DNA of 64,000 nucleotides, taken from positions 5,472,001 to 5,536,000 of the forward strand of contig CBDETK010000013.1 in the NCBI GenBank assembly GCA_965242865.1, read 5' to 3'. The stretch comes from Candidatus Latescibacterota bacterium. GTDB taxonomy: Bacteria; Latescibacterota; UBA2968; UBA8231. Position 1 is the first letter of the stretch, and the number at the start of each line of letters is the position of its first letter. This document shows, one piece after another, positions 1 through 18,000 of the stretch. The position numbers were made by a program.

Positions 1-3000
1 AAGCGACAAAAGAGAAAGTCGATCGTCCCGACTCCAATCCAGAAAGTGGACGGCCTCATCAGATAGATGATGCTTCCAAGCCCCCCTTTTTGTCCCGAAG
101 CAAACCTCCCTTTGCGAGAGACGATATTCGATCCACGTATCCTTTTGAGAAAGGCGTCTGCGCTCCGGCACCGGGACGCTTCCCTTCTTTTTGAAGATCG
201 CTTCAAAATGGAACGGTTCTGTGTCGCTACGTATCTGAGTAGTGAATGCAAATCCCGCCTCAAAAGCATCTGCTCGACCACCCCGTCCTCGGTAATGGGC
301 GATCTCGTCGAAGCTGCCGAGGTCGTAAGGCTCTTTCTTAAAATCGGGGTTTTTCTGCCGGTAGGCGACATCCCAGAGTGCCCGGATCAGGGCCATGAAC
401 GAGGTCTTGCCGGTGCTGTTCTCCCCGACAAGTAGCGTCAGTGGTGCTAAACGGGCGGTCTGTTTTTCGCGGAAGCAGCGAAAGTTTTTGATCGTGATTT
501 GGTCCATGCGATTCCCTTTTTTGTGCTTTTAGCGCGGCACCGCTAGTAGGAGGCGTTTTTCGTTGCAGCCTTGAGGATAGGGGGCGGATAGGGCGTTGGC
601 AAGGCGGAGGAAGTCCTCGGCACAAATCAGCGTCCGCAGCCTCTAAGGCGATGGCGGATGAGAGATGCGGATACGACCGCCGCACACCGATCTACTAGGA
701 ATCTCACGAATCCGCAATCGATACAGCGGCCAGTGTATCTTTGGCAATAATGGCATGCGCGTAGGCCGTGCAGGCGCGAATGTCGTCTGGTTCCAGTTCG
801 GGGTAATCCGCTAGAATGGCCTTTGTCGTCACGCCCTGTGCCATCAGGCTCAGGATGAGTTCCACTGAAATTCGCATGTCGCGAATGATGGGCTTGCCGC
901 CAAAGACTTCCGGGCGGGCGGTGATGCGCTTGAGCAGTTCGGGATTAGGGATCATGTCCTCTCCGTAGATTACGTCCGGCTACCTCGGCACCGCCAGCAG
1001 CATGGCGTCGAGTGAGGCGTTTTTTTCGGAACCAATAGGAGTCATCGGTTCTGCGTGATGAGCCGACTTCTGCTTTCCTCGCGTGGCTTTGAGGGCGGCT
1101 TGGTTTCAAAGGGATTACTTACCCGACTGCCGCTATCTTCCCACACTCCCAATTCTTCGAGTTCTCGGCGCATTTGTAGCGCCTCTTCGACGATCTTAGG
1201 ATCAACCGCCGGATTCTTTGCGATCTGCTCTTTGGTGAGCATGGGCACAAGTAGGTCTTTTTTTAGCATAGAGACTCCTTTTAGGGGAAATAACGGTTAT
1301 GGACTAGACTATTTGCTTCTTCCTTGAATGCAAGATCTCCGAAAAACCAGAAGTATTCCTTGATCAAGTTGCTCAACGTAGGATCGGCTTCTAAGTCATC
1401 AATTTTGAGCTTCAATTCAGCAAGAACATCTCGGTTAATTCCACGTCCATGAGTACCCCATCTTTTTTGATCGTTAAGTGCTTGGGCGATTTCTTCCGCA
1501 CGTTTCTCCTTTTCTTTTTGAGTAACAGGTTTCTTTGTAGAACCGTGTGTTGACCAATCCTTGAATTTGTACTTTACAAGCCAATGTTGAATGAGTCGAA
1601 CTGATAGCTCGGCTGCCAATTCATATTGACGCAAATCAGCAGCATCAAGTTTCTGAAGCAGCACCAAATCCGCACTTGTCAGGGTGCCTTCTTCGGCTTT
1701 TTTGACAAAGCGTTCGTACTGTTCAAGATAAGAAAGAACCGATATAGGGATGGGTTTGTCTTCTATATACAATTGGGGATCAACCGGCCCCAAACAAGAG
1801 AAGTAGTCCATCAAAATTGCGTCCCCGGACATCACGAGCACCGTCCCTGCCGACATCGCCTTATCGGGAATGAGAAACTTCACCTCTTTGTAGTAATGCC
1901 TGAGCGTGGTAACAATGCGTTCGGCGACCTCGACAATGCCACCAGTTGTATCAATGATCACGAGCGAACCTTCGCGGCGTTCCGGGACCCTTTCGATAGC
2001 CAACCTGACGCGGTGATCGACCGACTCCATGATTGGACCGAAAATTGTCAGCGCATCCATACAGGTATGCTTCTCAATTTCAGCGAGCTTGGAATTAAGC
2101 CACTCGACCGCGATTGAATCGCTCGTATCTGGATTCTTTTGTGGGACCGGCTGCGCGGTGATGTCATCGGCCATGGAGTGAACTCCTGCTCTCGGGGATT
2201 CGATTCATGTTGTCTCTGCGTATGCTTCGATTTTTAGAGTACTTAACCAGAATTTTTGCTTTGCGTCAACCTTTTGCTGAATCACGCGTCACCTCGGCAC
2301 CGCCAGCAGCATGGCGTCGAGGAGGCGTTTTTCGTTACAGCCTTGAGGGTAGAGGGCGGATAGGGCGTTGGCAAGGCGGAGGAAGTCGGGGCCGCGATCT
2401 TGCTCGGCGCTGATTAGCGTCCGTAGGGCGGTGGCGTGGCCGGTGGATTGGAGCAGCATGGCGGTGTGGACGCGGTCGAGGGTGGTGTCGCCAAGCGTGG
2501 CGGAAAGGGGGTCGTCGGAGGATTCGCCGTATTGTGGGCGCGGCTCCCGGACGAGCGTGGGGGTGCTGTCCTGCTGGTCGGGGAAGAGCGTCTGCTGGGC
2601 GTCGGCTCCGCTTTCGATGTACGTGGCTGCGGCGGCCGCGCCGTCTTCGCCGAAGAGCTTTTGGGCGCGCTCGGCTACGGAGAGGAGGCGCACGACGCCC
2701 TTTTCTTGGCCGATGATGCGGTCGGTTTGGGCGGCGAGGTCAATGCCCATGGGCTGGGCGAAGCGGCGCACGACATCGAAGGGGAGCGCGAATCCCGTGG
2801 CCGCGGCTTGGGCGACGGCTTCTTCGTCGGCCTCGTCGGCTTGGTCCTGATTTTCTGCAACAGGGGCCGTGCTCTGGAGCGTCCACAGGAAGAGCGCGGT
2901 TAGGCGGGCGTCCGCTTCCAATGCGCCGTGCGTTTGCGCCTCGGCCGTGCCGAGCACCTGTTGCAGGGCGGCGCGACCGACGACTTCCCAGACTTTTTCC

Positions 3001-15000: not shown

Positions 15001-18000
15001 CAGCACCCGCTGGCAACCCGCTGGCCTTGGCGATAGGGTCCTTAGCCCTCACACTCGACATGGTCTCCATTTTGGCCCTCTCATTCGTCCCGTGTTTTCC
15101 ATTTTTCAGAAGTCTTTTGACCTTCCCTAACTTCCACCGGCTGCTTGAGCGCGTCAACGCTCAGATAGTAGTGAGCTACCTTGGTGACCTCGTGCCACGG
15201 AAATCGCACGGGGTCTCGGATCGGCTCTTGAAGCTCTGGCGCACTCGCGCAGTGGGTCACCACGTAGAGCCAGTAGCAGTCGCGGCGATCCTCGGCGACG
15301 CGCCGCTCGTTGGGCGTCAGCAGGATAAGGAATTAGGGCTTTTTCGTTGAGCCAAGCGGTCGCCTCGGGCCGTGCGGCTATCGGCGGCCGATTTGTGAAA
15401 TCCTCAATGAACCGCAAGAATACCTCTATTTTCTCGACGTGCATCACACGAAAAGTATCGGCGTAATCTGAGCAACCTAGACACATCGTGCATCTTCCCC
15501 GATCTAGCTGTTTTGAAAGAGTCATCTGAAGCTTATAAAGCTGAAGCGGTTTCGTTTCAACTCAGCCAAAAACGCTTGGCCTTCGCCTCTCAGCGTTTCC
15601 TCGCGCCACACTTGATAGATCAGGAGCCAGAAGCGGTCCTTCTCTTGGGTCTCCATATCCTTCAACTTATTGGCGCGTCTTCGTATCGCCTCCCGAATTC
15701 TCTTAATCCTGTAGCGTTTTGCGTACTTTAGTAGTAACACATCCGAGAGGCAGTCATCTATCGCGATGACCTCTATGAACTTGTCCTCCAGCGTACTCAA
15801 CTGAAGGTTATGTTTGAGCGAGTAATACAAGGCATGGGCGATGGCATCCGAATAGATTCTCTGAATTCCAATCACTAGGAGATGTTCAATAAAATCAAGA
15901 ATGACTTTCTCGATTCCATCATAGCGATGCTTGTCGAACACGTGCTTGTCTAAGATTGGAGCAAGATATGGATATAGCAGTGCCAAGTTGATAGTCTCCT
16001 GAACGAAGAGACGCTTAGCTCGGCTATCGAGACTCGGAGGCACCATCTTGATAGCGTAGTTCAAAACGGCATAGGTCTCCGCTCCATGCGCTAGTTTCAG
16101 TGCCAAGTCCAGGAGCGAACGAACCTTCCCGAAGCGAACGGTTGCGCCTTTGGCTGGCAATCGGAAGTTGTTCAACTCTCGAACCCAGTCTTTTTGGATT
16201 GGAAGTGGCATCGGCAAGATTTCAGTCTTACGGTCGTTCAGAACAAGCTCGTATTCGCGCAGTTGCATCCCAAGGTCATGGATGAATTTCTCAGCTTCGT
16301 CATAGGTTTTCGCGTAAAAGGTGTAATCGTCAATATAGCGGCTAAACCTCTCGTATCCCTTCTTGGTCATCTCATAATCAATTCTGGTCAGTATTATCTC
16401 TGAGACGACGTTGGATGAGTGTGGCCCGATCAAGATCCCATTGGTTTGTCCATCTCGGATACCCTGGGTGGCTTTGTCCAGAAGATTTCCTGCCAATAAG
16501 ACCGAGCGGCACTTTTTCGACTTACTACGACCATGTAGGGCCCATGGGATTGAATGAGTGTAGATGCTGGGAAAGCAATTTGATATATCAGTGTAAACGA
16601 CATAATGCGCTCCCATCATTTCGCGAATGTCTATTTCTTCATGCTCGAAGTGTTCCTTTCCCTTGTAATTCATTCGGAAAACACGCTCACTTGACGTTTT
16701 CCGAACAAAGAGACGGCTCACGGGTGTCTTCGGTTTTGCGCAGTGCCCTTTAATTGTCGCCCAATGCTGCTTCAGGGCTAGACACTGGACAAGGTGGCTT
16801 TCGGGATGGGGAACCCCCATCTGACGAGGGATATTGACGGCGTGTAGTGGTTCGTAGCGGATGAAATCGTGCTTTCGTTTCTTAAAGGTCTTATCCAAAT
16901 TTTTTGAGTCTTTTTCTGTTGTTGGCTTTAGAAGAATGTTCGGGGCATAGGCTGAAAGCCCTTTGGAGGTAAAACATGGCGGAAGTTTTTCACTGAATAG
17001 GCCATAGTCAACCAAGCCTATGAATGCTTCGTCCTCCGAAAGGCCGAGCCCTGTCGTTTGTCTCCTTACCATAGAAATCTCCTTTGAGGACTGTCGCCTT
17101 CAAGTGACCGAGGCTGCCTACCCTGTGCTGCGCTCTTTCCACAGCCGAACCGTGAAGCGGTAATCCTCCGCTATCAGGTCCGGCTCGGTGCCGTTGTGGG
17201 CCAACATGCCGGGAATGATCTTGTTCCGCACGCCCATTCCACGCGCATCCACATAGCCGTAGTCGCGCATCACGTTGACTAGCGTCTGATTGCGGGCGTA
17301 GCGCAGTCCCAAGCGCATCCCGGCCGGCGTCACCGTGTTGGGCAAGCGACCCGGGCTGACCACTTCGAGGCGGTCGGAGAATATGACCAGCATGATGTCC
17401 GTTCCCACGATGCTATAATCGCGGTGTACTAGGGCGTTGGCCACGGCCTCGCGCACCGCTTCTTCGGGAAATTCCCAGCGGTCAATCCGCCGCGCCCCTT
17501 CCAAGTAGGCGGAAGGCGTCGTATTGCGCCGCACGAAATCCCACGCCTTATCTACAAGCCCCAGCTTGACAAACTCCCCATCCTCGGGGTCGCAGAGCGG
17601 AACCATAGGACCGTTGAGATCCTCGTCCGCACGGGTTGCATAATCCGGCTCCCGGCCTACGTAGCAAATCGCGCGAATGCCCGATTGCGGAAGAAACCGC
17701 TTGGGGTTCTTGCCGAACAGGAGCATTCCGTCCACGGTTGCGACCATCCGGCCCGCTGTTGGGGTCGCAAGTTCGAGGTTTTGCAGCAGCCTTTGCCATT
17801 GATCGACATCGCTTGCCGGCGGAACGCTGCTGCCCAGAACGCGGCCAAAGTAATCGCGCAAGTGCCGCTGGCTGAGCGAGTCGATTGCCGTGCCGAGGAC
17901 GGGCTTTAAGCCGTAACGGAACAGTCCCCCTTGTAAGTAGAGCCGTTCTTCTTCCTCGCGGCCAGCGGCTCGCGTGGTAGTACCGACGCGTACCTGAGTA

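Follow-up and report, generated by a model that had tools for sequence, protein, structure and literature searches.

The DNA analysed in this study is a window of 64,000 nucleotides (nt) from the genome of a Candidatus Latescibacterota bacterium (assembly GCA_965242865.1, contig CBDETK010000013.1), G000:C13:5472001-5536000 in our numbering, where G000 is the source genome; the stretch holding the DNA to the left of the window is designated L003. A co-oriented gene array on the minus strand occupies window positions 1-19484 and about 6 kilobases (kb) further to the left. The locus is an operon of the PADLOC type Hma, with the HmaA helicase, the HmaB DUF1156 methylase and the HmaC DUF499 ATPase as core genes, and it lies at a fixed chromosomal site in the genus. 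About a dozen embedded defence cassettes were found in the array, together with short copies of core gene ends, hereafter called scars. From the right end leftward, the gene order starts with DUF4432, a Schlafen/AlbA_2 gene, DRT4, a helicase fragment, a Ppl-like PHP-ATPase, another Schlafen gene, two MNT/HEPN pairs and a methylase 5' fragment. It continues with SIR2-STAND, DUF6932, HmaB, an SDH-type protease with an open reading frame (ORF) of 75 amino acids (aa), a methylase 3' fragment, and DUF433 with a DUF5615 remnant, and ends with a 3' fragment, an ABC ATPase with a PIN-like gene, one more 3' fragment, a truncated and a full HEC-01A-like ATPase, and HmaC. The flanking genes are ordinary ones, ManC and IspH at the left and FG-GAP/ASPIC at the right (Pfam). 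A first-pass annotation had described this region as defence cargo stacked between degenerate ends of restriction-modification (R-M) core genes. Core genes do frame the cargo, but the main locus is an Hma system, which is defunct in G000.

Self-blastn of the window and alignments recovered the fragments of the first-pass annotation at, or within a few bases of, the positions given there, although two of those counted as scars (5077-5200 and 2289) are the true ends of the resident, frameshifted methylase. All features of the array given here are on the minus strand. The HmaB 5'-end scar (9501..9628) comprises 128 nt from the ATG and is 87.5% identical to 5073-5200 over 128 nt (E 2.8e-39). It opens exactly at the methylase ATG, overlapping the HEPN stop codon as ATGA, and contains an in-frame TAG. 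The non-homologous side of this joint is a unique spacer (9234..9500) between the scar and the SIR2-STAND gene, for which no match was found in the relatives or elsewhere in the genome. HmaB 3'-end scar no. 1 (982..1024) is a 43-nt copy with its own TAG stop upstream of DUF433, 97.7% identical to 2291-2332 by blastn (43 nt, E 3.9e-12), and its counterpart in the related genome G009 measures 119 nt at the equivalent place. Scar no. 2 (529..640, core 548-615) lies directly upstream of the ATPase cassette, with two small deletions and its own TAA; the core is 95.6% identical to 2320-2387 (68 nt, E 4.5e-24), and the scar is 98.5% identical to the allele of G013 versus 95.6% to the own allele of G000. 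The pattern extends beyond the window, as a whole-island search located a fourth HmaB 3' copy just to the left (L003:18632-18663, 32 nt, 87.5%). Each HmaB 3' copy extends to a stop codon, which is TGA, TAG or TAA, and beyond it the copies run into different cassettes.

The helicase 3'-end scar (15081..15392) has no parent gene in the window and was tested against HmaA of the relatives. Window 15084-15326 corresponds to residues 1072-1152 of the 1152-aa HmaA of G009, a protein with SNF2, Helicase_C and NOV_C domains, and the 84% identity over these 81 residues bears out the earlier assignment of 15081-15390 to a helicase 3' end. The last 246 nt or so are intact; next to them lies a piece whose place in the parent gene is some 500 nt more upstream, seen as a second eroded helicase piece at about 15337-15392; the displacement of this piece denotes an internal deletion. 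In both G000 and G009, the adjoining Ppl gene as annotated from a TTG start shares 77 nt with the helicase 3' end. The first 30 or so residues of "Ppl" moreover find their match in the helicase 3' region of genomes without Ppl, so the true Ppl start is probably further downstream.

The scars have a polarity. The 5' scars start at ATG and come after the cassette they travelled with, and the 3' scars finish at the stop codon and come before their cassette. At every 5' scar start the stop codon of the upstream gene lies inside ATGA or GTGA. The inner ends are ragged, and the lengths range from 24 to 205 nt.

Both HmaB and HmaC of G000 are recognised by PADLOC and Pfam. HmaC (L003:13855-16599, 914 aa; PADLOC HmaC 1.6e-93, Pfam DUF499 5.6e-13) is intact and on the same strand. 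HmaB (2289..5200) is a pseudogene in two overlapping ORF pieces (PADLOC HmaB PDLC00661 3.3e-61 and 2.8e-54; Pfam DUF1156 2.3e-23), the frame being shifted by a 25-nt deletion at about 4177. Seven relatives possess those 25 nt; in run X8 the 25-nt insertion was present in 0 of 172 depth, and contigs of X11 and X1 carry the 25 nt. As for HmaA, the relatives carry a 1150-aa protein (SNF2, Helicase_C, NOV_C) at the corresponding place, and only the 81-residue C-terminal fragment is left in G000. No full HmaA was found anywhere in G000, where other helicase matches reach at most 36% identity. With HmaA deleted and HmaB frameshifted the Hma scaffold is defunct, and most cargo ORFs are still open; the broken ones are one HEC-01A copy and the DUF5615 gene, while the others are mostly full length. 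Judged by its sequence, G000 is a decayed Hma member. The genes c22 and c9, which stand next to HmaC in all relatives, are located about 1 Mb away in G000 (C13, about 4,444,000), and beside c22 are 49 nt that match (87.8%) the spacer immediately upstream of HmaC. These positions suggest that the chromosome was rearranged with one breakpoint at the locus, the rearrangement ending at HmaC (L003:13855).

The cassettes are of diverse types. In the HmaB-HmaC interval, the SDH/ClpP-like serine protease (1281-2174; Pfam PF01972 1.4e-16) and the 75-aa ORF (1042-1269) form one cassette (1042..2174), a pair also present in G009 and G030. The DUF433 antitoxin-like gene (704..955; Pfam 3.8e-22) is followed by the remnant of its DUF5615/PIN-like toxin partner (616..703). 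Comparison with the DUF5615 gene of G023 revealed an internal deletion in this remnant, since the spacer corresponds in its first 22 nt to the start of that gene, and in nt 21-156 to the gene's end plus the scar. The ABC-ATPase gene (AAA_15/AAA_21/DUF3696 by Pfam; PADLOC NsnB 3e-37, HEC-03B 1.8e-27) has its 5' part at 1..507 and extends leftward to L003:19149. It is followed, left of the window, by a 158-aa PIN-like partner whose G001 homologue matches PIN, and the cassette resembles the HEC-03 type. Upstream of HmaB, a non-coding leader of 283 nt (5201..5487) is conserved at 91% to G007:12678-12960 and at 89% to G030; Pfam and Rfam gave no match for it, and it is perhaps a leader or promoter that the loci share. 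Its G007 counterpart comes directly after HmaA and before an MNT gene.

In the HmaA-HmaB interval, the gene nearest to the leader is a DUF6932/nucleotidyltransferase-like gene (5488..5928; Pfam; PADLOC candidate PDC-M63A), of which G030 has a C-terminal remnant. The SIR2 and STAND NTPase gene (6069..9233, 1054 aa; Pfam SIR2_2 1.8e-14, nSTAND5 2.6e-9) and its upstream spacer (6069-9500) have a GC content of 33-34% against 61% for the genome, and no counterpart of the gene was found in the loci of 17 relatives; the cassette is probably foreign and recently gained. Two tandem MNT/HEPN toxin-antitoxin-like pairs (9625..11078; HEPN 9625-10167, MNT 10007-10351, HEPN 10382-10777, MNT 10764-11078; Pfam, PADLOC PDC-S09) are 78.6% identical to each other over 701 nt by self-blastn. 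They are followed toward the right by the Schlafen AlbA_2/HATPase_c_4 gene Slfn1 (11115..12350; Pfam), the Ppl-like PHP and ABC-ATPase gene (12359..15157, 932 aa; PADLOC Ppl 9.5e-42; Pfam), which comes directly after HmaA in G009, and the DRT4 defence reverse transcriptase (15522..17072; PADLOC Drt4 1.8e-152). A second Schlafen AlbA_2/HATPase_c_4 gene, Slfn2 (17118..18356; Pfam), with 59% aa identity to Slfn1, borders on the DUF4432 gene (18372..19484; Pfam). The latter is the conserved flank at this end; relatives have HmaA directly next to it, and HmaA is missing here. The comparison of window 1-20000 with Rfam gave 0 matches, and the promoter and terminator scan was uninformative, its matches crowding in the AT-rich SIR2 block.

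An HmaB orthologue search covered 61 genomes and found close orthologues in the genus. Up to 40 kb were fetched around 17 further loci, so that 18 loci including that of G000 were mapped with the G000 proteins and the cargo of the relatives, and every locus was searched with the termini of all full-length core gene alleles. The synteny of the genus is FG-GAP, DUF4432, HmaA, cargo, HmaB, cargo, HmaC and flank. The cargo differs in each of the 18 loci, and the cassette order of G000 was seen in 0 of the 17 others, which disposes of the idea that relatives share identical fixed content. It is defence-like throughout and includes ABC ATPases with DUF4276 or PIN, OLD-type, ThsB-TIR, YhcG nuclease, GmrSD, MNT/HEPN, DUF433/DUF5615, Schlafen and other genes. 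Similar scars were found in at least 12 other genomes, some of only 24-40 nt: 5' starts of the methylase behind Slfn2 and behind HEPN, helicase 3' ends in front of YhcG, methylase 3' ends ahead of several cassettes, and HmaC 5' starts in G027 and G030. In G009, an independent genome in one contig, SDH-protease, scar, DUF433, scar and ATPase stand in the same order as in G000.

The scars are copies of gene termini. Each genome's own gene was cut into tenths, the tenths were used as queries, and the copies outside the gene were counted. From the 5' to the 3' end, HmaB yielded 18, 2, 1, 0, 1, 0, 0, 0, 0 and 14 extra copies in 15 genomes, that is, 32 from the two terminal tenths (18 and 14) versus 4 from the eight inner ones. 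The corresponding counts were 0, 0, 0, 0, 0, 0, 0, 2, 0 and 1 for HmaA (9 genomes) and 1, 0, 1, 1, 0, 0, 0, 0, 1 and 0 for HmaC (12 genomes). A total of 32 scars are distributed over the 32 inter-core intervals of the 18 loci. As the first-pass annotation had anticipated, their number tracks that of the cargo, with a Spearman coefficient of 0.86 for the number of ORFs and 0.70 for the length of the interval, figures which describe the pattern and are no independent test, since the genomes are related and the joints partly shared, so that p-values would be overstated. Scars are present in 0 of 9 intervals with at most two ORFs and in 16 of 23 with three or more.

Several joints are shared between genomes in different contexts. 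In G004 and G001 the ATPase cassette takes the first position after HmaB, and this native junction of HmaB 3' end, spacer and ATPase has a base-for-base counterpart in the scar and spacer that precede the cassette in G000, G009 and G056b. A composite joint of an HmaB 5' start (about 33 nt) and an HmaA 3' end (about 31 nt) upstream of YhcG has an equal breakpoint in G023, G002, G014 and G013, and is preceded by HEPN in the first three but by Slfn2 in G013. The joint between DUF5615 and the 3' scar is common to G000, G023, G013 and G056b, and three different cassettes follow it. This fits joints that arose as single historical events and later spread, as would be expected from subsequent homologous exchange or deletion via scars or cassettes. 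Two scars resemble a foreign allele more than the own one: a scar of G009 is 94.7% identical to the G013 allele (75 nt) versus 81.0% to its own (100 nt), and one of G004 is 86.0% identical to another allele versus 77.2% to its own. HmaB itself is a mosaic. The G000 gene is 90-98% identical to that of G030 save for alignment columns 1401-2000, a central block where the identity drops to 53% and the closest alleles are those of G007 (85%) and G004.

G030 is the closest relative of G000 and clarifies the origin of the helicase fragment. Its locus has a partial HmaA with the 3' end, then Slfn2, what is left of DRT4, another helicase 3' end and Ppl, and the joint from DRT4 to the scar is common to G030 and G000 (95.9% over 121 nt). 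From this stacked order, and from G009, in which HmaA is directly followed by Ppl, it follows that the helicase fragment of G000 is a stacking scar and that the helicase was lost later.

The same pattern was found further to the right in the window, where a type I R-M locus on the plus strand carries foreign genes between hsd subunits (56-62.5 kb). The restriction subunit hsdR (55942..58461; Pfam ResIII 1.9e-35, HSDR_N) is followed by a Fic/DOC gene (58569..59459; Pfam 4.8e-19), a 58-nt hsdM 5'-end scar (59461..59518), a HicB-HicA toxin-antitoxin cassette (59544..59971; Pfam HicB_lk 1.8e-7, HicA 1.9e-17) and a fused hsdM/hsdS gene (60007..62496; N6_Mtase and Methylase_S by Pfam). In the scar, the first 27 nt equal 60006-60032, and beyond a short deletion the similarity resumes; self-blastn aligned 59460-59486 to 60006-60032 at 27 of 27 nt (E 3.7e-6), so that the earlier claim of an independent occurrence at this junction (59460-59518) holds for the hsdM start. 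The order Fic, hsdM 5' scar, HicBA and hsdM looks like one event of the kind proposed below. Between the two loci, window 26441-32655 encodes a 1066-aa AAA_11/AAA_12 superfamily-1 helicase, two ORFs (367 and 647 aa) without Pfam match, a PP2C phosphatase and a Ser/Thr kinase, and is possibly another defence-type cluster.

A second Hma locus, with about 35% aa identity to the first, is located at about 3,262,000-3,295,000 of G000:C13 (L061-L063). Its order is HmaA, HATPase_c_3, C5 methylase, HmaB, HATPase_c_3, 3' scar, HigBA, AAA_21 and HmaC, the scar between the HATPase_c_3 gene and HigBA being a 78-nt copy of the HmaB 3' end (84.6%). After HmaC, a 1.6-kb segment from upstream of HmaA and the last 217 nt of HmaA are duplicated at 98.7-99%, which constitutes a helicase-deleted partial copy. 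In other phyla such scars are rare. Sixty-seven loci from many phyla were fetched, 18 with clearly partial matches were dropped and 49 were scanned; 17 of these were skipped (7 with broken or partial genes, 10 with a flank below 3 kb), and a long scar was found in 1 of the 32 analysed (L073: 182 nt, 79%, 1.9 kb downstream of HmaB). Six other matches of 23-30 nt among the 32 loci were treated as chance. Heavy scarring thus appears to require that a locus has been resident for long and exchanges with diverged relatives, as it does in the genus. HmaB proteins of L065-L069, L073 and L080 are 65-74% identical to those of the genus and occur in metagenome-assembled genomes labelled as several phyla, and by this comparison the Hma system seems to move widely between distant lineages.

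We consider it probable that the array grew by homology-anchored recombination with one illegitimate joint at the two Hma inter-gene junctions, followed by deletional erosion. Cassettes would come from other Hma loci and still bear the adjoining core gene end, the donor DNA having the form HmaA 3' end-cassette-HmaB 5' start or HmaB 3' end-cassette-HmaC 5' start. On one side, homologous recombination would take place within the conserved core gene; on the other, illegitimate joining would occur within or beside the resident terminus copy. An equal product would come from linear DNA by homology-facilitated illegitimate recombination and from a circle of cassette and terminus by a single crossover of the Campbell type. 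As only one side is homologous and the other joint illegitimate, the new cassette would join the resident ones instead of replacing them, and part of the terminus would remain in duplicate between cassettes. Donors being homologous operons, cassettes would always enter in operon orientation. Later deletions would shorten scars and remove genes, and scars and cassettes could supply homology for more swaps and deletions. In G000 this process would have outlived its scaffold, with HmaA deleted, HmaB frameshifted and most cargo ORFs intact. The first-pass annotation had proposed stacking through one homologous anchor plus an illegitimate joint; scar polarity, shared joints and allele mosaicism support this, and we infer the recombination route, the direction of transfer and the re-use of scars as recombination sites from sequence comparison. 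Variation within the population also speaks for it, as contigs in runs X11 and X1 join 12400 to 15079 and omit Ppl (92 nt on the shorter side), which is a polymorphism at a cassette boundary. Two further observations on these runs were set aside and not used as evidence: contigs of X11, X12 and X1 cover the SIR2-STAND block hardly or not at all, and an X11 contig seemingly joining 5138 to 11095 has 23 nt on one side.

A number of points weigh against this explanation. No recombination event was directly observed. Scars are fewer than cassettes minus one, the HmaA-HmaB interval of G000 holding 10 ORFs and 2 scars, and 7 of the 23 intervals with at least three ORFs are scarless; many joints must then be scarless, eroded or otherwise made. 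For most scars the own allele is as close as any other (difference 1-3 nt), so the termini are too conserved to name donors, and those scars may have arisen by duplication in situ. Only one candidate microhomology, the 4-nt "CGAA" at a 5'/3' composite joint, was noted, and it hinges on an unseen parental allele. For the SIR2-STAND block (33% GC) with its unique spacer, a homologous Hma context is found nowhere in the sample. The single long scar among the 32 loci of other phyla means that the process cannot account for embedding in general, unless scars mostly disappear or loci with one cassette prevail. Finally, the compared genomes are kin, and shared joints count single events many times.

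Alternatively, whole or partial Hma loci might have been gained repeatedly side by side, by tandem or segmental duplication or serial insertion, and redundant core genes deleted afterwards with their ends left as debris. The partial copy behind HmaC in the second Hma locus of G000 is in line with such gains. Another partial second copy follows HmaC in G007 (L025, oriented 25920-27702) and consists of a 3' piece of DUF4432, an HmaA scar of 41 nt, the whole Slfn2 gene and 5' pieces of HmaB; this copy looks like the remnant of a helicase-less locus variant like that of G000. Deletional erosion is evident as well in the internal deletion of the helicase scar, the DUF5615 remnant and the loss of HmaA. 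However, random deletions should also leave internal pieces, and mainly termini lie between cassettes (4 inner versus 32 terminal HmaB copies in the 15 genomes). Bodies of HmaC and HmaA are absent between the HmaB-side cassettes, and the composite joints, which put a 5' start and a 3' end within a few bases, would need very precise deletions repeatedly. We therefore consider serial gain of loci unlikely as the main source of the scars.

Selection on expression signals could keep the scars for function, as stop/start overlaps, ribosome-binding sites or promoters of the neighbouring cassette. The ATGA or GTGA overlap at each 5' scar start, the 77-nt overlap of the helicase scar with the annotated Ppl start, as in G009, and the conserved spacer with a purine-rich stretch ahead of the ATPase cassette are in line with this. 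Such signals cover few bases, though, and not 70-200 nt, and the scars hold frameshifts, stops and deletions. The origin of the duplicates would be left unaccounted for, so that functional retention complements homology-anchored recombination rather than replacing it, and as the main cause of the scars it is improbable.

The first-pass annotation had seen no recombinase and no attC-like site, and wider searches agree. The tyrosine recombinase domain PF00589 has 3 matches in the whole genome (93.6% complete), the nearest about 475 kb from the island, and the serine recombinase domain PF00239 has 0. Pfam scans detected no recombinase among the island ORFs nor among 20 ORFs of at least 90 aa in window 21.6-56 kb, and no integrase or resolvase in the cargo of the 18 loci, where the only mobility gene found was one IS5-type element in G013. 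Seven scar and junction sequences folded as single-stranded DNA gave z values of -0.53 to +0.70 against 200 shuffles each, that is, no attC-like hairpins. Identification as an integron was rejected because no intI lies beside the array and no attC hairpins were found at the seven folded sequences. An integrase-mediated island in a gene 3' end was rejected as well, since the repeats are ragged (24-205 nt) with no constant extent and no integrase was found.

Integrases that insert DNA into gene ends typically leave direct repeats of the gene 3' end around the insert. The 3'-end repeats around the inserts would accordingly suit a site-specific recombinase, encoded elsewhere or lost, that recognises core gene ends, with the repeated termini as att duplications of tandem elements. 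Several short 5' scars are also of similar length (26-40 nt), but these are largely identical inherited joints. The distance of about 475 kb to the nearest tyrosine recombinase, the lack of serine recombinases in the genome and of either in the cargo of 18 loci, the ragged scars without hairpins, and the three different stop codons of the 3' copies leave such an enzyme only a slim chance.

That the array is an assembly chimera of co-occurring strains, whose different cassettes were collapsed at common gene ends, is very improbable: the runs do hold several related strains (many contigs at 90-99% likeness), the contamination estimate of the genome is 6.8%, and short-read contigs break right at the 3' repeats (983 and 2318/2367), the listed X8 contigs bridging neither 3' scar inside the window, but X8 contigs with 0 differences span the 5' scar (5107-10309) and the helicase scar (12656-18048), X8 being possibly the source sample and thus not independent, and the one-contig genome G009 has an equal order of cassettes and 3' scars, with similar scars in at least 12 other genomes.

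Embedding in Hma systems is already published. According to Payne et al. 2024 (bioRxiv 10.1101/2024.01.29.577857), 931 of 1,485 Hma systems have embedded genes, of which 3.1% are mobility proteins and 96.7% are in operon orientation; ABC-ATPase cassettes (HEC-01, HEC-03) are the commonest type, and embedding was used to find new defences. As in the systems described there, the defence cassettes of our array stand between hmaA, hmaB and hmaC in operon orientation, and both HEC-01 and HEC-03 are matched in the G000 island. Unlike in that account, as far as its available text goes, the array has terminus scars, stacks of up to 10 ORFs and cargo surviving the decay of the scaffold. Loci with pseudogenes or duplicated hma genes were excluded there and at most three embedded genes per junction were allowed, so that arrays like that of G000 would have been filtered out. 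No mechanism is given there, the words "recombination", "fragment" and "remnant" occur 0 times in its whole text, and only the idea of a "genomic sink" is put forward.

A close precedent is the effector-immunity arrays of type VI secretion systems (T6SS) in Vibrio cholerae. In the sections of Kirchberger et al. 2017 (PMC5361080) drawn on here, repeated horizontal gain at a conserved anchor gene is described, and homology-facilitated illegitimate recombination is proposed, with older modules pushed along, displaced gene-end remnants and no integrase; an explicit comparison to integrons is made, and C-terminal displacement in Rhs and contact-dependent inhibition (CDI) loci is cited as a kindred mechanism. 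Anchor-gene stacking, gene-end remnants and the lack of an integrase are common to both, going by those sections. The G000 locus has two marks of such T6SS and Rhs-type arrays, namely an anchor gene with homologous exchange (the mosaic HmaB) and gene-end remnants between modules that vary among relatives. In Vibrio, however, again within those sections, anchoring is one-sided, and what gets displaced is the effector's variable 3' portion, leaving orphan immunity genes. In the Hma array both neighbouring core genes serve as anchors, 5' and 3' terminus scars are found, composite 5'|3' joints separate cassettes, and the cargo consists of whole unrelated defence systems.

Mobile integrons have in common with the Hma array an ordered, co-oriented row of promoterless-looking cassettes at one site, whose content varies between strains. 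The Hma array is without intI, attC hairpins and a fixed recombination point, and the likeness is in outcome only; the integron-like array without attC of the first-pass annotation is correct as to the missing hairpins and otherwise an analogy. In Neisseria minimal mobile elements and core-gene-flanked defence hotspots, cassettes free of mobility genes are swapped by homologous recombination in conserved flanks. In those models this is replacement and not stacking, no terminus duplicates are known from them, and the flanks in our case are genes of the defence operon itself. The literature searched, a limited collection, yielded no account of terminus scars at loci with embedded defence genes. 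While the mechanism has precedents in the Vibrio T6SS immunity arrays and Rhs loci, the scar record of an embedded defence array appears to be new.

Embedding in Hma, BREX, DISARM and type I R-M operons has served the discovery of defence systems, and the route by which the embedded genes arrive had stayed open. The scars are a record of embedding at the level of sequence and point to homologous recombination with an occasional illegitimate joint between related operons, without mobile-element machinery; this route would account for the operon-matched orientation of embedded genes. The frequency of 1 in 32 loci outside the genus tempers the reach of the claim, and the phenomenon is not general. 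Surplus copies of core gene termini, and not of interiors, provide a searchable signature, which may be used for finding multi-cassette arrays excluded by published filters, for ordering acquisitions and for spotting "ghost" scaffolds with intact cargo. A bolder interpretation, which we offer tentatively and regard as rather doubtful, is that core gene termini of multi-gene defence operons act as portable, integrase-free recombination sites, with the composite "5' start | 3' end" joint, borne by a cassette that was cut out along with some dozens of bases from either adjoining core gene, in the role of attC, and that RecA-level homology inserts, deletes and shuffles whole defence systems among related operons. 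If so, the operon would be a self-renewing cassette array able to outlive its own scaffold genes.

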